A DNA stretch of 44,927 nucleotides from a phage. Numbering within the stretch: position 1 is the first letter of the stretch; every line of letters begins with the position of its first letter. The notes below the pieces were generated by a model, which was given only the letters and a program-made list of their open reading frames with translations, made no database searches and had not been told where the DNA came from. The stretch lies in the sequence record PZ871095.1; one strand, 5' to 3'. Shown here piece by piece: positions 11,759 through 39,697 of this stretch. A program made the position numbers and the translations under genes.

Positions 11759-11760
11759 TG

Positions 11761-12012
11761 AAGCGGGACGTCCCGCTTTGTCCCGCCCTGTAAAACCGCA
11801 TATCTAATCACTTTCATTGCATAAACTCAAAGCGGGACAGGCGGGACGTCCCGTTTTGTCCCGCCCATGAAATGTGCATACCTATTCTAATTTCGTGCAT
11901 AAAACAAGCGGGACAGAAAGCGGGACAGACAAGGGGCGGGACAAAGCGGGACAGCACCCCGTCCCCGCCAGTGCTGCCGCGGTTTTCAGCCGATCGGGAC
12001 AAGCGGGACAAA
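11761..12012. repeat. cluster of GCGGGACA octamer repeats (about 12-14 copies, direct and inverted)
   Basis: Direct reading: GCGGGAC(A/G) recurs at roughly 11-16 bp spacing, including two GCGGGACGTCCCG palindromic hairpins followed by T-runs; starts right after the chaperone extension stop. Confidence 0.85.
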
Positions 12013-16937: not shown

Positions 16938-17545
16938 CAACGTTTAAATTGTACGGCGTTTTGGGACGTCGATTCGGTAAAGTTCATAAGCTGGACTGCT
17001 TCACTCCGGGCGAGGGTATTACCGGCCTGTGCGTGAAGTTACCCGGCTTACAGGACTTTCTAATGTCAGCCCACCTGGACAATATGATGTTCAAGGTGCG
17101 CAAAGGCGACCACACGATGACCGGCTATGATGAGCTGGGTGAGTTCCACGGCAACCGCGTCGTCACCATCGCGCCGGTTATGACGGGCGCAAAAAGAGGG
17201 TTGGGACAATTGCTGGCGGGTGTCGCGATCGTAGTGGCGTCGTTCTATACGGGCGGACTTGCTACTGCCGCTTTCGGGGCTTCGGCTGCAACCGCTGCCG
17301 CTATCGGGACGGCGACGTTTTCGTTCGGGATGTCGATGGCGCTGGGTGGCGTTATGCAATTGCTGTCGCCACAACCGAAAGGATTGCAGACAAGGCAGGA
17401 CGTGGATAACAAGGCGTCGTATGCGTTCGGCGGCCCCGTAAACACTACCGCGCAAGGCACGGCTCTTGGTGTATTATGGGGCGAGCGTGAGATCGGCGGC
17501 GCTATTATTTCAGCCGGAATCGTAACCGAGGACTTGAACGAATGA
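16928..17545 (+). CDS. tail assembly protein (lambda I-like)
   Basis: 205 aa overlapping the K-like gene; glycine/alanine-rich hydrophobic C-terminal half; precedes the J-like gene. Confidence 0.65.
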   Translation: MAMTTFKLYGVLGRRFGKVHKLDCFTPGEGITGLCVKLPGLQDFLMSAHLDNMMFKVRKGDHTMTGYDELGEFHGNRVVTIAPVMTGAKRGLGQLLAGVAIVVASFYTGGLATAAFGASAATAAAIGTATFSFGMSMALGGVMQLLSPQPKGLQTRQDVDNKASYAFGGPVNTTAQGTALGVLWGEREIGGAIISAGIVTEDLNE

Positions 17546-20500
17546 CGATTATCTACGACGTCACAGGGCATAAAGGCGGCGGCGGAAAACAGCACACCCC
17601 ACAGGAGACGCCAGATAGCCTGCATTCGCTGGCTAAAATCCGCATCTTGCTTGCGCTGGGGGAAGGGGAATTCGAAAGTATTACCAGCGCCAGCGAATTG
17701 CGGCAGCGTGTTTACCTGGATGGAACGCCGATCCAGAACGCTGACTTGTCCGAAAACTTCCCTGGCGCGCGTGTGGAGTTCCGCCCCGGCACACAGCACC
17801 AGGATGTGATCCACGGATTTTCAGCGGTGGAAAGTGAGCAATCTGTCGGCGTAAAACTGGAAAACGGTACGCCGTGGGTACGCCAGATTAACGATACCAG
17901 TCTGGACGCCGTTCGCATTCGCATCGGAATTCCGGCCCTGTACACTAACGAAGATAATGGCGACCTGGTTGGCGGACGCATTGACTATAAGATCGTTGTG
18001 TATACGGATAACGCCGACCCGCGTGAGTTCAGATTCTCCGCCGTTGGTAAAACAATGTCGCTGTATGAGCGCGACCACCGCATCGAATTACCGCCGAACG
18101 TGAATACCGGCTGGCGCGTGGAGGTGCACCGCATAACGGCAGACTCCACATCGGCGAAAGTGGTTAATGATATCCGGGTGCAGTCCATCACTGAGATTAT
18201 TGACGCCCGCCTGCGTTACCCGCTAACCGCGCTGTTGTTTGTGGAGTTCGACGCCAAAGCGTTCCAGAACATCCCGCGCGTGTCCATCAAGTGCAAAGGT
18301 CGCAAAGTTCTAATACCGAACAACTACGACCCGATCAATCATACCTATTCCGGGGACTGGGACGGCACGTTTAAACGCGCATGGACGGATAACCCTGCGT
18401 GGCACTGGTACGATATTTGTATTACTGAGCGCTTCGGCCTCGGTCGGCGTATCAAACCGCAAATGCTAAACCGATACGCGCTCTACCAGATTGCGCAGCG
18501 CTGCGATCAGTTGGTCAGCGACGGCAACGGTGGTCGAGAAATCCGCTTTAAGAATGATATGTACATTCAGTCACAGACGGATGCCTGGACCGTGCTTAAG
18601 GATTTAGCCGCCATCTTTGCCGGTATGACCTGGTGGGGCAACCAGATGTTGAATATCGTCAGTGACCAGCCGGTCGCAGCGGTATCGCACACCATCACCA
18701 ACGCCTCGGTCATTGATGGGCGATTCGACTACGCATCTGGCAGCCAGAAAACTCGCTATTCCACATTCGCGGTAGCATACGGCAACCCGAAGAACCACTA
18801 TGAAGACGCCATTGCTACGGGGCAGCGTGTCGAACTGGTACGCCGCCATAAGATCAACCGTCTTGATATAACGGCGATCGGCTGTACGCGCGAGTCAGAA
18901 GCGCAACGCCGCGGGCACTGGGCGCTAATCTCAAACCAGCTTGACCAGCAAGTTAGTTTTAAGGTTGGCATGGAGGGGTTATTCTTTATCCCCGGTAGCG
19001 TAGTCGCGATCGCAGATACTAATATTTCTGGCGGATTCGAGACTCGTGGCGGTCGCCTGTTGTCGGACCCCGGAACGCGTACCGTGCTGAACACGGACAG
19101 CGAAATCACGTTCCGCCCTGGCGATAAGTTCATGGTGCGCACCGATAGCGGTAATGTGGAGACTCGCGAGATCGCCAACGTCAACGGCAACAAGGTAACT
19201 CTAAAAACCGCACTGGATGCCGACCCGATTCCGGACCAGCCGTTTTGCGTTGATGGCGACGATATCCAGTTGCAGAAGTTCCGCATCACCGACCTGGAAT
19301 ATGACGACTCTACCAGCACTTTTTCAGTGCGCGGGATCGAGTACAACGATAGCAAATACGATGCCGTTGATAATGGCGCTCGTCTTGACCCAGGCATCTT
19401 TACGCAAGTGCCTGACGGCGTAATGAAGGGGCCGGAGTCCGTGACCATCACCCCGTCGCAGATTTCATCGCAAGGCCAGCTAATCACCAACGTGGATATT
19501 GTTTTCCCGCCGGTGAAGGATGCCGTTGTATATGAAATCCAGTGGCGGCGTACCAGCCTGCAGAATATGGAAATCCAGTGGGGTAACGACTGGGTGAACA
19601 TTCCCCGCACGGCATCGAACGGTGCGCACATCCCGAACGTGTTTTCCGGAAACTATCAGGCGCGCGTTCGCGCAATCGGTATGGGCGAAATTTCATCCCC
19701 GTGGGTGTCGTCTGCCATCACGCCGATCGAAGGTCGTCTCGGTGGGCTTAACGCGCCTATCATCACAAACGCTATTCCGGGCCTCCACCAAATTTTGTGG
19801 AAGTGGAACCACAACAACGCCGCGACGGATATCTCTTACACCGAGCTTGAAGTGCGCAAGCGGGGTGAAACGGAATGGAAGTTCTTGACCAACGTCCCAT
19901 ATCCGGGGTCGGACTATGCGCAAACGTCGCTGGAGTTCGGGATCTACCAGCAGTTGCGCGCCCGCGTAGCGGATAAAATCGGCAACCTGTCGGACTGGTC
20001 CGCCCCGTTTGAAGGCCAGGTGAGTGACAAAGTTGACGAGTACATGAAGGGGTTGGACGACGAGTTCTTGACTTCCGAGGACGGTAAACGCTTCCAGGAA
20101 GCGATCGACACCATGCCGCAAGGCATTTATGAAGCCATGCTCACAGACGCGCAGCAATTGTTTAACGCCCGCGCCGAGTACCAGGGGATTTACGCAGAAA
20201 TCAAGGTGGCGTATAACGTGGCTGCGGATGCCCACAAGGCGGTAGCGCAACTTGAGACGTTGATCGGCACGCGCCTTGACGATGCGGAAGCGGCGATCCA
20301 CACGTTGCAGACCGCGCAAAGCACGCACGAACAAGCGTTCGCCCAGTACCAACAAACTGTTGCCGCTAAGTTCGGGGAGCAGGAAGCTGCCATCCAGCAG
20401 GTACAAACGGCAACGGCAGACGTAGCGGGCGCGCTGGCGGAGTACAAGACCCAAGTAGCGGCGCAGTTCGGGCAGCAGTCCGCAGCTATCGAGCAGAAGA

Positions 20501-20961
20501 TGACGTCTTCGTTTAACCATACTGGCGGTAGTGCCACATACAGCCTTAAGGCTGGCGTGACGTATAACGGGACTTACTATGATGCCGGTATGCAGCTTTC
20601 AGTTGTGGCGGAAGGTGGCGCGGTTAAATCCCGCATCGCGTTCAAGGCGGACCAGTTCTACATCATGCACCCGTCGAATGGGTCGCTTTCGTCCGCGTTT
20701 ATCGTCGACGGCGGGCAGGTGTACATCGACACGGCGCGCATCAAGAACGCGTCCATCAACTTCGGGCAGATCACAGACACGCTGCAATCGAATAACTACG
20801 ACGGCAGCACGCGCGGATGGCGCTTAGGTAAGGATGGAACGTTTATTAACCTGGGGACCGGAAGCGGTGGTGGTACAAAGCTGACCAACACCAACTACAG
20901 CGTTAAAGACGCGAACGGTGTTTTACGCGTGCAAATTGGCGAGCTTACTGGTCGCTGGTAG
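17542..20961 (+). CDS. host specificity / central tail fiber protein (lambda J-like)
   Basis: 1139 aa, largest tail-tip ORF; ATG overlaps the I-like stop (GAATGA); A/Q-rich repeated helical segment near the C-terminus. Confidence 0.85.
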   Translation: MTIIYDVTGHKGGGGKQHTPQETPDSLHSLAKIRILLALGEGEFESITSASELRQRVYLDGTPIQNADLSENFPGARVEFRPGTQHQDVIHGFSAVESEQSVGVKLENGTPWVRQINDTSLDAVRIRIGIPALYTNEDNGDLVGGRIDYKIVVYTDNADPREFRFSAVGKTMSLYERDHRIELPPNVNTGWRVEVHRITADSTSAKVVNDIRVQSITEIIDARLRYPLTALLFVEFDAKAFQNIPRVSIKCKGRKVLIPNNYDPINHTYSGDWDGTFKRAWTDNPAWHWYDICITERFGLGRRIKPQMLNRYALYQIAQRCDQLVSDGNGGREIRFKNDMYIQSQTDAWTVLKDLAAIFAGMTWWGNQMLNIVSDQPVAAVSHTITNASVIDGRFDYASGSQKTRYSTFAVAYGNPKNHYEDAIATGQRVELVRRHKINRLDITAIGCTRESEAQRRGHWALISNQLDQQVSFKVGMEGLFFIPGSVVAIADTNISGGFETRGGRLLSDPGTRTVLNTDSEITFRPGDKFMVRTDSGNVETREIANVNGNKVTLKTALDADPIPDQPFCVDGDDIQLQKFRITDLEYDDSTSTFSVRGIEYNDSKYDAVDNGARLDPGIFTQVPDGVMKGPESVTITPSQISSQGQLITNVDIVFPPVKDAVVYEIQWRRTSLQNMEIQWGNDWVNIPRTASNGAHIPNVFSGNYQARVRAIGMGEISSPWVSSAITPIEGRLGGLNAPIITNAIPGLHQILWKWNHNNAATDISYTELEVRKRGETEWKFLTNVPYPGSDYAQTSLEFGIYQQLRARVADKIGNLSDWSAPFEGQVSDKVDEYMKGLDDEFLTSEDGKRFQEAIDTMPQGIYEAMLTDAQQLFNARAEYQGIYAEIKVAYNVAADAHKAVAQLETLIGTRLDDAEAAIHTLQTAQSTHEQAFAQYQQTVAAKFGEQEAAIQQVQTATADVAGALAEYKTQVAAQFGQQSAAIEQKMTSSFNHTGGSATYSLKAGVTYNGTYYDAGMQLSVVAEGGAVKSRIAFKADQFYIMHPSNGSLSSAFIVDGGQVYIDTARIKNASINFGQITDTLQSNNYDGSTRGWRLGKDGTFINLGTGSGGGTKLTNTNYSVKDANGVLRVQIGELTGRW

Positions 20962-20997: not shown

Positions 20998-21300
20998 ATG
21001 GCATTCGGTATCGCAACGTGGGACGCGCAAGGACGCCCCAACAACTACGGCATTAAACCGGTAAGCGTGATCGGAAGGATTCATCTTGCGGAAGGACAAA
21101 AATCAGGCGCATGGTCATTCCCGGTACCGGCGGGGATGAAGGTCGGATATGTGGTCGCCCTGGATAAAGGCGCGGTCGGGCCGGGACGCAGAATAACCGC
21201 CAGCGGGAACACTATCACGGTTTCCGCGGCAAGTGCGGTAGGTGGCGGGGTTTACTCCGCATCTGAATGTGACGTTATTGTTTTTGTGGAGCGAGCATAA
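20998..21300 (+). CDS. hypothetical protein (tail-associated by position)
   Basis: 100 aa, ATG with GAGG ribosome-binding site, between the J-like gene and the fiber locus. Confidence 0.55.
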   Translation: MAFGIATWDAQGRPNNYGIKPVSVIGRIHLAEGQKSGAWSFPVPAGMKVGYVVALDKGAVGPGRRITASGNTITVSAASAVGGGVYSASECDVIVFVERA

Positions 21301-21974
21301 TGGCTAATTACGGCGCGCTGATTGACTTACCAAACGGCAACCCGTTTATCACGCCAGAATCGACGCCGTTTTGTCTATTCCGCCGTGTGGTTGTTGGGTC
21401 TTCGGCTAACGGCACTGCGCAGTCGGCGGCTGCCGATATTAATTTGGGGGGTGACTACCCTGCAATAGCGTTTGTGAAAACTACGCACACCGCCCAGCCG
21501 ACCGTCGTAGGGTCTTCTCGCGTTGGTAATGTGGTGAAGGTGAGCGCCAGCAATCCATTTGGGCAAGGATTCACGATGACAGCATACATCTTTGCCATAT
21601 TCCCACAGACCCTTCCGCGGTGGGGCTTCGCTATTTGGGATAAGACGGGGAGGCTAGTGCTGACGAACGAGAGCCGGGTACTAAGCGATTTAGTTACCGT
21701 CGGATCGCCAGGCGCTAACGGGGGAATTAACATTGACCAGACGCTAAACGGCAGCTACGCCGTCGCTCCGGGCATATTGGGGTCTACGCTGATCCGGTTT
21801 TTTGTGCAGGGCCAGCCACAGGTAATATCGGTAACGGCGTACACGGGGGCCAGATTTGATGGGTCGCGAACGCGTATATCGGCAGCGTCGTCGGGGAACG
21901 CCACGGGGGATGTGGTGGGGTATACTAACAACGGCAACGCGATTATGGCGATTAACACTGCCAATTATGATTGA
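21300..21974 (+). CDS. hypothetical protein (tail-associated by position)
   Basis: 224 aa, ATG overlapping the upstream stop (TAATG); Gly/Ser/Thr/Asn-rich, fiber-like composition. Confidence 0.6.
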   Translation: MANYGALIDLPNGNPFITPESTPFCLFRRVVVGSSANGTAQSAAADINLGGDYPAIAFVKTTHTAQPTVVGSSRVGNVVKVSASNPFGQGFTMTAYIFAIFPQTLPRWGFAIWDKTGRLVLTNESRVLSDLVTVGSPGANGGINIDQTLNGSYAVAPGILGSTLIRFFVQGQPQVISVTAYTGARFDGSRTRISAASSGNATGDVVGYTNNGNAIMAINTANYD

Positions 21975-21977
21975 AGA

Positions 21978-22000
21978 AGGCCCCGAAAGGGGCCTATTTG
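21978..22000. terminator. hairpin terminator between convergent genes (AGGCCCC-gaaa-GGGGCCT)
   Basis: 7-bp GC stem between the plus-strand gene ending 21974 and the minus-strand gene ending 21994; T-runs are weak on both strands. Confidence 0.5.
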
Positions 22001-22212
22001 CAGGTTGTGCTTTTGAAATGGTCAACTGACACATACTGGAAGTTAAACGGGTATCCCGCCCTGAGCATTTTGTGGCCGCTAAAATCCGCGACCCCAAACA
22101 CGGGGACTGAGTAATCCATGCCGCTATTCTGGTACGTCGCGTCGCAGACTTTAGCTGGCATGTTGGCACAACCGGACAAAAGAACTGCACAAATCATAAT
22201 TAAAGTTTTCAT
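21994..22212 (-). CDS. small outer-membrane lipoprotein (Cor-like superinfection-exclusion candidate)
   Basis: 72 aa from ATG 22212 (AGGGGATGA ribosome-binding site); lipoprotein signal MKTLIMICAVLLSGC with lipobox LLSGC; sole minus-strand gene among tail genes. Confidence 0.55.
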   Translation of the reverse strand: MKTLIMICAVLLSGCANMPAKVCDATYQNSGMDYSVPVFGVADFSGHKMLRAGYPFNFQYVSVDHFKSTTCK

Positions 22213-22292: not shown

Positions 22293-24047
22293 ATGGCGGC
22301 GGGTACTCTATCCGTAACGAATAACAGCAAGGCGGTTGTTGGGGTTGGCACGACGTTTACCGCGCTGAAGGCTGGCGACTTCCTGTCGCTGGTAGTGGGG
22401 CAAGTCCCTTACACTGTCGCTATTGCATCCGTAGAAAGTGACACCGCGCTTACGCTGGTGCTGCCGTTCGATGGCCCAACGGCAACCGGCCTCGCATGGG
22501 ATAGCGTGGCGCGCGATACAATGTCGCTTGCGACTATGGGCGTAACCGTCCAGGCGCAGAAAGCATTGCGCTTGCTGATTGCAGATGAGAACAACTGGCG
22601 CGCAATCTTCGGCGACGATGAAGAAATCACAGTGACGTTACCTAACGGGCAGGTTATGCAGGGCATGTCATGGGGCTATCTGTCACAGTTGATGAAACAG
22701 ATCGACCCCGTTGAGATGCGCAACCTGCAACAACAAGCCGCCGCATCTGAAGCAGCCGCGCAAGGATTTCGTAACGAGGCTGAAGGATTTCGAGACGGCG
22801 CGCAAGGATACCGCAACGAGGCGCTCCAATTCCGCACCGACTGCGAAGGGCTGAAGAACGAAACGACAAACCTTCGCAACGATGCGCTCCAATTCCGCAC
22901 CGACTGCGAAGGGCTGAAGAACGAAACGACAAACCTTCGCAACGATGCTAACACAGCTAAGACTGGCGCGGAGACGGCACGCGATCAGGCGCAGAACATC
23001 GCCGACGGTATGGACCCTGGACAGTATATGCAGAAATCTGCAAACCTGAGCGATGTAGTGGATAAGGCGCAAGGCCGCGCGAATATGGGTCTTGGCACTA
23101 CAGATGCCGTGGAGTTTGGTGGGGCCACCCTCAATGGTCACACCCGCATCAATGGCTCGTTGCTGTTGGGGCGTAACCAGTGGGATGGGTCTAGCTGGGG
23201 GAGCTACGGACTACAATCGTCATTCGTCATCATGTCGCCGGATGGAGACTCCGAGCCGGGATTTTACATCAGGCCGCTATCGGGTGCGCCTGGGTACGCA
23301 ACGTCGTTCACCTATAATCTCGCGATTAATCTTTTCAGCACCAGTGCTCGCATCAAGGCGGTTAACTTCTCATCCAGCACTACGACTATGGGATATAACG
23401 AGATGTGGTCACGTGCATGTTTCCAGGGGCAGCCATACGAGGCCCAGGCGGGGGTTGAGAACTACCAATCGCTTGTCGCAGGTACTTGCGGTACGGTATC
23501 ACACGGATTTTACGGTGGCGTTGCGTTCGGCATGATGACTGCTGGCGGGGATGGGTGGCCTGTCGGTCAGATCTCGATCGGCACGCAGGACAGAGCCGCT
23601 GATGGCACTATCGGATTACAAATGCACTTCCGTTTCCATTCATCCGGTAACATTACGTATACGGGGCCGGCGGGGTCGGGGTCATTCCAGCAAATCCCGG
23701 CATCTGACCGCAACATTAAGCATGATATTAAAGACGATAAATCCAGCACAGCATACGATAACATTAGAGCCATTCGATTCCGTAATTTCGTATTTAATGA
23801 TGACGAGCAGGAGCGTATTCGTCGCGGGGTTATCGCACAGGAGCTTGAAGAAATCGACCCGCTTTATGTTAAGCACCGCGAATACCACAACATGGAGCTT
23901 AACGGGCCGAAGATTACTCGACTGGAGCTTGACACGACGCCGCTGTTACTGGACACAATGCGAGCGTTGCAGGATACGATTAAGCAGGTGGAGGAGTTGA
24001 AGGCCGAGATCGCAGCTATGAAACAGGTGGAGGAGTTGAAGAAATAA
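22293..24047 (+). CDS. tail fiber protein with C-terminal intramolecular chaperone (S74 peptidase-like) domain
   Basis: 584 aa from ATG 22293 (GAGGA ribosome-binding site); SDRNIKHDIKD... segment characteristic of autoproteolytic fiber chaperone domains; internal exact tandem repeat. Confidence 0.8.
   Translation: MAAGTLSVTNNSKAVVGVGTTFTALKAGDFLSLVVGQVPYTVAIASVESDTALTLVLPFDGPTATGLAWDSVARDTMSLATMGVTVQAQKALRLLIADENNWRAIFGDDEEITVTLPNGQVMQGMSWGYLSQLMKQIDPVEMRNLQQQAAASEAAAQGFRNEAEGFRDGAQGYRNEALQFRTDCEGLKNETTNLRNDALQFRTDCEGLKNETTNLRNDANTAKTGAETARDQAQNIADGMDPGQYMQKSANLSDVVDKAQGRANMGLGTTDAVEFGGATLNGHTRINGSLLLGRNQWDGSSWGSYGLQSSFVIMSPDGDSEPGFYIRPLSGAPGYATSFTYNLAINLFSTSARIKAVNFSSSTTTMGYNEMWSRACFQGQPYEAQAGVENYQSLVAGTCGTVSHGFYGGVAFGMMTAGGDGWPVGQISIGTQDRAADGTIGLQMHFRFHSSGNITYTGPAGSGSFQQIPASDRNIKHDIKDDKSSTAYDNIRAIRFRNFVFNDDEQERIRRGVIAQELEEIDPLYVKHREYHNMELNGPKITRLELDTTPLLLDTMRALQDTIKQVEELKAEIAAMKQVEELKK
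22821..22946. repeat. exact 63-bp tandem duplication (2 copies) inside the tail fiber gene
   Basis: gcgctccaattccgcaccgactgcgaagggctgaagaacgaaacgacaaaccttcgcaacgat appears twice back to back, encoding ALQFRTDCEGLKNETTNLRND twice. Confidence 0.9.
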
Positions 24048-32898: not shown

Positions 32899-33683
32899 TT
32901 AACGGCGGCGACGTTTACGTGGTGCTTCGTCTTCGTCGTCTTCGTCCTCATCTTCGTCATCGCGGGACTTGCGGCGTTTGCGAGGTTTTTCATCTTCCTC
33001 ATCATCGTCGTCATCGCGGCGCTTGGACTTTTTGGACTTGCGCGGCTTGTCATCTTCATCATCGTCATCACGACGTTTTGACTTCTTAGCCTTGCGCGGT
33101 GCTTCGTCTTCGTCGTCGTTGTCCAGGTCTTCATCGGAGCAAGAAGACCCGCCACCGCCGAAGGCTTCACCGTCATCACGGAAGCGTAAACCCAGCAAGC
33201 CAGCACCGAGTCCCTTGCCGTTGGTGTTGTTCCACGCCCAAATATCAAGTGACACGTTGCAATAACAACCGGAGTAGATCTCCTGGCCTTCAATCTCGTC
33301 GCCGTCGATGGTCAGACCTTGTTCAGTCTGCTTCTCGCCGAGTGACGTTTGAATGATTGGCTGTTTGAACGATTTAGCGTTGATGTACAACATGCCTTCG
33401 AATTCTTCGGTTACTTCGTCGCGCTCGTCACCGTCGCGAACTGCGCATTCCTTAGAATCCTGGGCGTAGTGGCGGTCCATCCACTTATCGGCATTCTTCT
33501 CGGATTTCAGCTTATCGGTGAGCACTGCGCGCGCTGCCGCTTCCACTTTGTCCACCTGCGGATCTTCTTTATCCAGAAGAATCACGGCACGGTATGCCGG
33601 TTTTTGTCCATCCTGTTTAGGGGTATCACGTTCCCAAATTTTCAGGAAGCATACGCGCACATTTTTCAGGTTGACTTTAGCCA
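32899..33683 (-). CDS. SSB-like protein (DUF2815 family) with repetitive charged C-terminal tail
   Basis: N-terminus MAKVNLKNVRV typical of DUF2815; start placed at ATG 33683 after GAGGA; C-terminus carries three repeats of an acidic run followed by PRK(A/S)KKSKRR. Confidence 0.7.
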
Positions 33684-35914: not shown

Positions 35915-36427
35915 TTAGTCTTCCAGTTCGAAATAGGTTTCTACAATTTCTTTCAGATCTTTGTGGAAGTCTTCTACGTCGTCATCTTCCAGTTTTGCGA
36001 TTGATTTGATCTCGAACGCTTCCAGCAGGTCGTCAAATTCGTCGTTGGCATCGTCGTCATCACCACCGGCGATAATCGCGGCATACTGTTTGATTTCGTC
36101 GCGCATCTCTGCCAGCGGGTCGGCATCTTTCTTGCCTTTGCCTTTCGCCGGAGCTTTTTTGGTTTTCGCCGGTTTTTCGTCTTCGGCTTCTTCATCGTCG
36201 TCATCTTCTACGACTTCTTTTTTGGCCTTACCTTTAGCCGGTGCTTTTTTGGTTTTCGCCGGTGCTTCGTCTTCAGCGTCGTCATCTTCTACGACTTCTT
36301 TTTTCGCCTTAGATGGCTTTTTATCTTCCTGCTTACCAACGGCAGCGCCAACGGTTTCATAATGCTTAGCGATGGTTTCCAGTGCTACTACGCCGCGTGT
36401 AATCAGGTTTACGATTTGTTCAAACAT
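35915..36427 (-). CDS. acidic repeat-containing early protein
   Basis: 170 aa; first gene after the leftward promoter; about 50 D/E residues, internal imperfect tandem repeat (KKEVVEDDD..EDE.PAKTKKAPAKGK twice), very acidic C-terminus. Confidence 0.6.
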   Translation of the reverse strand: MFEQIVNLITRGVVALETIAKHYETVGAAVGKQEDKKPSKAKKEVVEDDDAEDEAPAKTKKAPAKGKAKKEVVEDDDDEEAEDEKPAKTKKAPAKGKGKKDADPLAEMRDEIKQYAAIIAGGDDDDANDEFDDLLEAFEIKSIAKLEDDDVEDFHKDLKEIVETYFELED

Positions 36428-39507: not shown

Positions 39508-39591
39508 ATTTTGGGTGTTTTTATCATGTCGTATTGGTTGCCGTGTTGTGTAGCTATAATGAATAGTTATGCAATAAAACTGCATAAAGTA

Positions 39592-39697
39592 AGCGGGACA
39601 GAAAGCGGGACAAACAAGGGGCGGGACAAAGCGGGACAGCACCCCCGTCCCGCCCCGGATGGCGCGGCCCGGAGAGGAGCGGGACAGGCGGGACAAA
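39592..39697. repeat. cluster of GCGGGACA octamer repeats (about 7 copies), second locus
   Basis: aagcgggacagaaagcgggacaaacaaggggcgggacaaagcgggacagc...gagcgggacaggcgggacaa; highly similar to 11901-12012. Confidence 0.85.

Follow-up and report, generated by a model that had tools for sequence, protein, structure and literature searches.

The lateral tail fibres of Dhillonvirus phages have been described to use the O-antigen as a facultative first receptor, and the BASEL papers describe their conserved N-terminus as the attachment region of a fibre locus that is otherwise hypervariable (PMC11990801, PMC8594841). In the T7 fibre gp17, the proximal section has been characterized as a triple-helical coiled coil (PMC13485008), and the T5 fibre protein pb1 has ~1,400 residues (PMC4690869). 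Here we analysed a 63-bp tandem duplication in the lateral tail fibre gene of the phage sequence PZ871095.1 (44,927 nt; this whole stretch is hereafter called the window), which, judged from its sequence, is essentially a whole Dhillonvirus genome. We consider it likely that the duplication represents a recent in-frame tandem duplication of three heptads in the coiled-coil rod of the lateral fibre of an E. coli Dhillonvirus.

Direct comparison of the two units (Table 1) showed that they are 63 nt each, 100% identical and in frame, and each is translated to ALQFRTDCEGLKNETTNLRND in the frame of the long plus-strand open reading frame (ORF). The exact duplication claimed in the original prediction, which had been made from the sequence letters without database searches, was thus confirmed; the number of exact 63-nt tandem repeats expected by chance in 45 kb is ~5e-34 (~45000 x 4^-63). 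Tandem Repeats Finder (TRF) reported the array at 22812-22948 (period 63, 2.2 copies, 98% matches, score 267) as the top-scoring one of the whole window. The array extends past the two units because an 11-nt motif, CGCAACGA(G/T)GC, recurs at 22812, 22875, and 22938, where a repeat search identified it as imperfect direct repeats bracketing the units. The degenerate heptad-like copies claimed for the surrounding region are also real: TRF detected a 21-nt (one-heptad) period directly upstream, and the protein displays twelve consecutive heptads. A regulatory-signal scan of the region found no promoter-like sites within the repeat; the only nearby terminator-like matches were weak ones on the minus strand (22736-22757), and the total for the region was within shuffle expectation. 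A regulatory reading of the repeat was rejected on these grounds. The minus-strand ORFs across the repeat, which lack independent support, were treated as by-products of the repeat.

The 63-bp unit encodes exactly three heptads (21 residues). Heptads 1-6 of the fibre are AQGFRNE, AEGFRDG, and AQGYRNE, followed by ALQFRTD, CEGLKNE, and TTNLRND; heptads 7-12 are ALQFRTD, CEGLKNE, and TTNLRND again, followed by ANTAKTG, AETARDQ, and AQNIADG. Read as columns, position 1 is AAAACTACTAAA, position 4 is FFYFLLFLLAAI, and position 5 is RRRRKRRKRKRA. Position 1 is small (A/C/T), position 4 is aromatic or aliphatic (F/Y/L/A/I), and position 5 is Arg or Lys, a pattern that bears out the heptad-like character ascribed to the repeat. 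AlphaFold2 (AF2) predicts a single uninterrupted helix here, with ten-residue block means of the predicted local distance difference test (pLDDT) of 61-87 over residues 141-240; the model is weak outside the helix and the C-terminal domain. In addition, residues 143-305 of the query align to residues 155-311 of T7 gp17 (PDB 7boz; phmmer E 1.4e-5). From this homology and the heptad pattern, we infer a trimeric coiled-coil state of the rod. The register is kept because 63 nt corresponds to 3 x 7 codons, and the rod would grow by 21 residues, from ~80 to ~101 helical residues, which amounts to ~3 nm at ~1.5 Å per residue. The suggestion in the original prediction that the duplication could alter shaft length is accordingly plausible rather than observed, being based on the predicted helix of residues 139-239 and the homology to the gp17 rod. 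Two cysteines, Cys184 (22842-22844) and Cys205 (22905-22907), occupy heptad position 1 of CEGLKNE, presumably in the core. The duplication adds a second Cys layer, and in a trimer three cysteines would meet per layer.

The copy number of the unit differs among relatives. Among the 50,697 phage records searched, only BMA1 and PS2 contained the unit. BMA1 (PQ178821), an isolate from Ecuador, possesses the same two identical copies. The isolate PS2 possesses one copy, with a clean 63-bp gap relative to the window and flanks that are 100% identical. The copy-number variation proposed earlier was therefore borne out between isolates, and repeat number is not invariant across related ones. Two copies are also found in EEY4030958.1 (584 aa), an NCBI protein from an E. 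coli assembly, and one copy is found in the homologues P0002, P0003, and P0004 (563 aa). P0001 (570 aa) displays one copy and an additional heptad, AEGFRNE. P0122 (542 aa) is without the three upstream heptads, has 6 heptads, and differs from the window protein at 5 residues; the alleles of P0121 and P0122 are known from protein sequence only. The clean 63-bp gap recurs in the contigs L005, L007, and L008, and L009-L011 encode single-copy 563-aa proteins; L005 and L007-L011 originate from different samples. All the observed alleles (Table 1, where U, R, and D denote the upstream triple, the unit, and the downstream triple) are in frame, and fibres ~99% identical to that of the window carry 6, 10, or 12 heptads.

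The metagenome scaffold L006 (MUNK18-1 scaffold_193), to which the fibre gene of the window is most closely related over much of its length, has a 100-N gap at 2704-2803, exactly in the repeat. Its left edge exhibits the deletion junction of P0122 (GCAGCCGCGC / TCCAAT), and its right side exhibits the duplication junction. The flanks of the gap abut perfectly, and closure at zero length would yield a fibre of 563 aa, in frame, that lacks the upstream triple and carries the unit twice. In the other collections, neither the exact 46-nt core of the unit nor a degenerate back-translated pattern matched any IMG/VR viral contig, and the unit had no match in GTDB genome contigs, complete E. coli genomes, or PLSDB plasmids. 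These searches thus did not place the unit in any resident prophage or plasmid of the E. coli and PLSDB collections. A search of metagenome contigs gave one match, L005, with a single copy.

A ladder of lengths is apparent across the family. The spacing from NLQQQ to NLxD[VLI] was 81, 88, 95, 102, 109, or 116 residues in 59 of the 59 database homologues having both anchors; the mode is 116, and the window has 102. Six length classes require at least five independent length changes, all of them multiples of seven, and if length changes were unconstrained the probability of this would be (1/7)^5 = ~6e-5. Seven other homologues possess exact 7- or 14-residue tandem duplications of their own. The event in the window exemplifies a polymorphism found across the family, by which rod length shifts only in whole heptads. 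The fibre of another Dhillonvirus, Bas84 (locus L003), has a diverged heptad region starting at locus position 1456; two heptads (42 bp) are exactly duplicated in tandem there (TDQIKSDTQAIKDQ x2), independently of the event in the window. In PS2, a 15-bp deletion (AASEA, 5 residues) at ~3470, corresponding to window 22737-22751, is located at the N-terminal edge of the helix.

Comparison of the flanking sequences suggests that the duplication is recent. Between the two-copy window and the one-copy contigs L005 and L008, 0 of 322 aligned nt differ across 22651-23035, and in the N-terminal region 43-45 of 358 nt differ. Sliding comparisons showed that the gene is a mosaic, with differences of up to 12-15% outside the shared segment. 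L007 differs from the window at 4 of 358 N-terminal nt and yet has another repeat architecture. The occurrence of different heptad numbers in near-identical sequences means that, within this clade, rearrangements outpaced substitutions. PS2 and L009-L011, whose middle segments have diverged further (10-14 differences), all have a single copy, so that the two-copy allele is probably derived from a one-copy ancestor.

The sequence around the unit suggests how the second copy may have arisen, and we infer a slippage mechanism. The single-copy allele carries two imperfect 11-nt repeats of the CGCAACGA(G/T)GC type exactly 63 nt apart, bracketing the unit; such repeats are a consequence of the degenerate 21-nt periodicity of the DNA. 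Slippage during replication, or unequal recombination, between these repeats would produce the two-copy allele. The junction reads ...CGCAACGAT / GCGCTCC..., and the crossover could be placed in the 2-nt GC following the single mismatch. Once present, two perfect 63-nt copies would let the same processes remove or add a copy. The trimeric rod would lengthen in register, and the distal O-antigen-binding part would be carried ~3 nm further from the tail. Other length changes occurred at comparable sites: the 21-bp gain of L007 is a separate duplication between AAGGATTTCG repeats 21 nt apart, the 63-bp loss of P0122 lies between GCGC tetranucleotides 63 nt apart, and the 42-bp duplication of Bas84 lies in similarly periodic DNA. 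Misalignment would yield whole-heptad changes because the DNA itself is periodic at 21 nt, and selection for the coiled-coil register may purge non-heptad changes.

Several points weigh against a recent duplication in a coiled-coil rod. The direction of the change (duplication versus deletion) rests on parsimony with few sequences in a mosaic gene. The AF2 model is that of a monomer and has low overall confidence (mean pLDDT 54). The 5-residue deletion of PS2 is the sole non-heptad indel seen in the region, although it lies ahead of the regular heptads. No three-copy allele was found in the databases searched, including the top protein matches and their 90% cluster members. Finally, the gap of L006, located exactly in the repeat, demonstrates that assemblers do fail there, and most of the single-copy records are short-read metagenome contigs, in which tandem repeats can be collapsed.

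The alternative that survives best, although we regard it as unlikely, is that two copies are ancestral and that recombination across the perfect 63-bp repeats deleted one of them repeatedly, giving the single-copy alleles. Such a deletion always gives the same product and should beat duplication via 10/11-nt microhomology. The two-copy state also occurs on different flanking backgrounds (window and L006 versus BMA1), and the mode of the family is a longer rod of 116 residues. However, in every two-copy allele the copies are still undiverged, the middle segments that diverged most are single-copy as described above, and in a mosaic gene recombination can move a two-copy segment without its being old.

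A second alternative concerns the meaning of the variation rather than its direction. The heptad region may be an evolvable molecular ruler, in which the 21-nt-periodic DNA renders whole-heptad changes so frequent that populations hold several fibre lengths, and in which length is selected for reach through the O-antigen or capsule of the local host. In the corresponding evolutionary form, heptad gain and loss would be selected at a contingency-like locus, with the several lengths serving O-antigen or capsule layers of different thickness. Both forms appear doubtful to us, to the same degree. The high identity of fibres with 6, 10, and 12 heptads indicates that indels outpace substitutions, one metagenome sample (L006) displays two distinct rearrangement junctions and also caused the assembler to fail, and the shortest alleles (81) gained heptads twice independently, towards the family mode. 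Work on T7 has also suggested that the coiled-coil section aids surface searching (PMC13485008). Against this, the strict ladder is equally expected from purifying selection on register combined with the 21-nt periodicity, with length being neutral, and two copies of a 63-bp unit mutate far less readily than the short-repeat tracts of classical contingency loci.

It is very unlikely that the copy-number differences are assembly artefacts, arising either from a duplication wrongly assembled in the window or from repeat collapse in its relatives, even though the two assembly points raised above favour this explanation. An artefact in the window itself is unlikely because BMA1 and EEY4030958.1 have two copies and the duplication junction is present in L006. 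Two copies are thus found in three independent records (the window, the isolate BMA1, and EEY4030958.1), and a single copy is also found in the isolate genome PS2. The names of the k141_ contigs (L008, L009, and L011), which are single-copy, suggest that the last k-mer size was 141 nt, which exceeds the 126 nt of the array. Moreover, the 21-bp gain of L007 cannot come from repeat collapse, the GCAGCCGCGC / TCCAAT deletion junction of P0122 and L006 offers no more than 4 nt of homology, which means that the reads must contain it, and the ladder of six length classes is found in diverged sequences.

Repeats in tail-fibre genes are the usual targets of diversity-generating retroelements, but the idea that the pair is a template and variable repeat, or a phase-variation switch, has a negligible probability: the copies are tandem and identical, without adenine-specific mismatches or template/variable adenine differences, they lie in the structural rod and not in the C-terminal binding domain, the annotations consulted, those of the surrounding 7.7-7.8 kb in BMA1 and PS2, list no reverse transcriptase, and a unit of 63 nt (21 codons) cannot shift the frame by its copy number, all alleles being in frame and no promoter-like site being present, so that both a retroelement target and a phase-variable on/off locus were rejected.

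The gene containing the duplication is, on the basis of its sequence matches, a Dhillonvirus lateral tail fibre gene. The assignment to a tail fibre in the original prediction held, given the match to phrog_1980, the C-terminal Peptidase_S74 domain, the position after gpJ and a cor-like gene, and the annotated homologues. The mechanical ORF starts at a TTG (22266). The homologous genes of BMA1, PS2, Bas84, and Gluttony, annotated as encoding tail fibre or tail tip proteins, start with MAAGTLSV, and GAGG is located 10 nt upstream of the ATG at 22293; this ATG is therefore most likely the true start. The fibre consists of an N-terminal domain, the predicted helix, a variable middle and distal part, and the C-terminal Peptidase_S74 domain (43.9 bits for PF13884, against a cut-off of 22). 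Query residues 447-577 align to residues 935-1073 of the T5 L-shaped tail fibre (PDB 8hqz; E 1.6e-13). The fibre gene was matched by 144 phage records, ~130 of which match only from query 1 to ~531, with 85-90% nucleotide identity. The Dhillonvirus matches mostly end at query ~531, which is window ~22796, so that the conserved part of the gene gives way to the variable part in the second or third heptad. Residues 1-72 (22293-22508) match PDB 23gd_B ('Distal tail protein gp20', E 2e-5) and weakly match the F2-pyocin side fiber 25ve_A; these matches point to a side-fibre attachment module of wide occurrence.

The first 20 kb of the window are 95% identical to the Dhillonvirus Escherichia phage EC115. 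This stretch was matched by 163 records, of which 118 cover at least 80% of it. The order of gpJ, a cor-type gene, and the lateral fibre is common to the window, BMA1, PS2, and Gluttony; cor is annotated in the latter three. Adjoining the fibre gene, we observed a module swap (window 20998-21974; L006 959-1924; L007 928-1893; L008 1731-2696; L003 1-722). In the window, BMA1, PS2, and Gluttony, two plus-strand ORFs (phrog_557 and phrog_425) lie between gpJ and cor. In the closest relatives of the fibre and in Bas84, a minus-strand 321-aa protein replaces them. This protein is PF20051/DUF6453 in L006-L008, L010, and L011; in Bas84, its annotation reads simply 'membrane protein'.

Other repeats occur elsewhere in the window. 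The motif AAGCGGGACAG has 10 sites at no more than 1 mismatch, compared with 0.8 expected, and 9 of the 10 lie in 11760-12011 and 39591-39687. These two stretches have an intergenic look, and the first holds a 78-bp tandem repeat (11763-11916) and 12-bp repeats. The arrays look like iterons or operator arrays. In addition, 54-bp and 90-bp tandem repeats with TCG/TCA/CTT-rich units occur at 32925-33119 and 36126-36299; on the minus strand, they probably encode acidic or basic protein repeats of low complexity.

Table 1. Features of the fibre locus in the window and fibre alleles among relatives
Feature	Position in window or allele size	Strand	Basis or records
Lateral tail fibre gene, 584 aa	22293..24047	+	phrog_1980 tail fiber, E 6.5e-138, residues 1-584
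Conserved N-terminal domain, presumed virion attachment, residues 1-138	22293..22706	+	Dhillonvirus nucleotide matches
Single uninterrupted predicted alpha-helix, coiled-coil rod, residues 139-239	22707..23009	+	AF2 monomer model
Twelve consecutive heptads, residues 156-239	22758..23009	+	Heptad tables
Degenerate 21-nt (one-heptad) periodicity, upstream of units	22757..22824	+	TRF, 3.2 copies, 68% matches; repeat family D2
11-nt direct repeat CGCAACGAGGC, left bracket of array	22812..22822	+	Repeat family D3
63-bp unit copy 1, residues 177-197	22821..22883	+	Exact match to copy 2
11-nt direct repeat CGCAACGATGC, across duplication junction	22875..22885	+	Repeat family D3
63-bp unit copy 2, residues 198-218	22884..22946	+	Exact match to copy 1
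11-nt direct repeat CGCAACGATGC, right bracket of array	22938..22948	+	Repeat family D3
Peptidase_S74 intramolecular-chaperone domain, residues 480-535, C-terminal helix after	23730..23897	+	Pfam PF13884, E 2.9e-11
cor-like superinfection-exclusion gene, directly upstream of fibre gene	21994..22212	-	phrog_1119, E 1.5e-27
gpJ-like central tail fibre / tip attachment protein	17542..20961	+	Pfam FNIII-A_GpJ, Phage-tail_3, Phage_Tail_Tip
Allele U-R-D	9 heptads		PS2, L005, L008-L011
Allele U-R-R-D	12 heptads		Window, BMA1, EEY4030958.1
Allele U+1-R-D	10 heptads		L007
Allele R-D	6 heptads		P0122
Allele probably R-R-D	9 heptads if gap is zero		L006

The duplication amounts to a genuine but rather ordinary polymorphism of fibre length; it adds an example to a known kind of event and reveals no new mechanism. 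Its value lies in the natural allelic series, in which nearly identical attachment and receptor-binding parts are combined with 6, 9, 10, or 12 heptads, and which could be used directly to ask whether rod length affects adsorption to smooth (O-antigen-bearing) E. coli. The tolerance of whole-heptad changes only offers a rule for engineering chimeric fibres at this junction, and a practical one, since it is within the second or third heptad that the gene passes from its conserved to its variable part. The locus also marks a spot where short-read assemblers break or may collapse the sequence. If the doubtful molecular ruler existed, it would range from 6 to 14 heptads, a span of ~12 nm, and would represent a length-based host adaptation separate from swaps of receptor-binding domains.

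Our literature search for heptad or tandem-duplication reports in phage fibres found nothing specific. The comparison with known systems concerns fibre architecture and related kinds of variation. The fibre of the window shares its heptad pattern with T7 gp17 (e.g., ALQFRNE, AETFRNQ, and AEGFKNE in gp17, with small residues at position 1, Phe or Trp at position 4, and Arg or Lys at position 5), and in both proteins the rod links the N-terminal domain for tail attachment to the distal part that binds the receptor. In contrast to gp17, the N-terminal domain of the window fibre is of the siphovirus side-fibre type, and its C-terminal Peptidase_S74 chaperone was not aligned to gp17 in the search. 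We know of no report of heptad-number polymorphism in gp17. The T5 pb1 and endosialidase-type fibres (PDB 8hqz) resemble the window fibre in the C-terminal Peptidase_S74 match and in the role proposed for Dhillonvirus, namely, reversible O-antigen binding before the central fibre binds a porin (PMC11990801). However, pb1 is much longer (the matched PDB chain has 1,076 residues), and the duplication in the window is located in the helical rod, not in the chaperone or binding domain.

Host-range duplications in T4 gp37 have reportedly been described by Tetart, Repoila, Monod and Krisch (1996, J Mol Biol 258:726; cited in PMC3157838). As in the window, these are in-frame tandem duplications of a small tail-fibre segment, formed via recombination involving short conserved motifs and tolerated in the assembled fibre. 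The T4 duplications differ in that they occur in the distal adhesin domain and directly widen the host range, whereas the duplicated segment in the window is a structural coiled-coil spacer. Variation in the number of shaft repeats is also a feature of the pseudo-repeats of the adenovirus fibre and of the collagen-like repeats in host-specificity proteins of lactic-acid-bacteria phages. In these shafts, as in the fibre of the window, a short structural repeat is the unit of change, and natural variants differ by whole repeats that alter the length. The shafts are built on a beta-spiral and a collagen triple helix in other virus groups, whereas that of the window is predicted to be an alpha-helical coiled coil.

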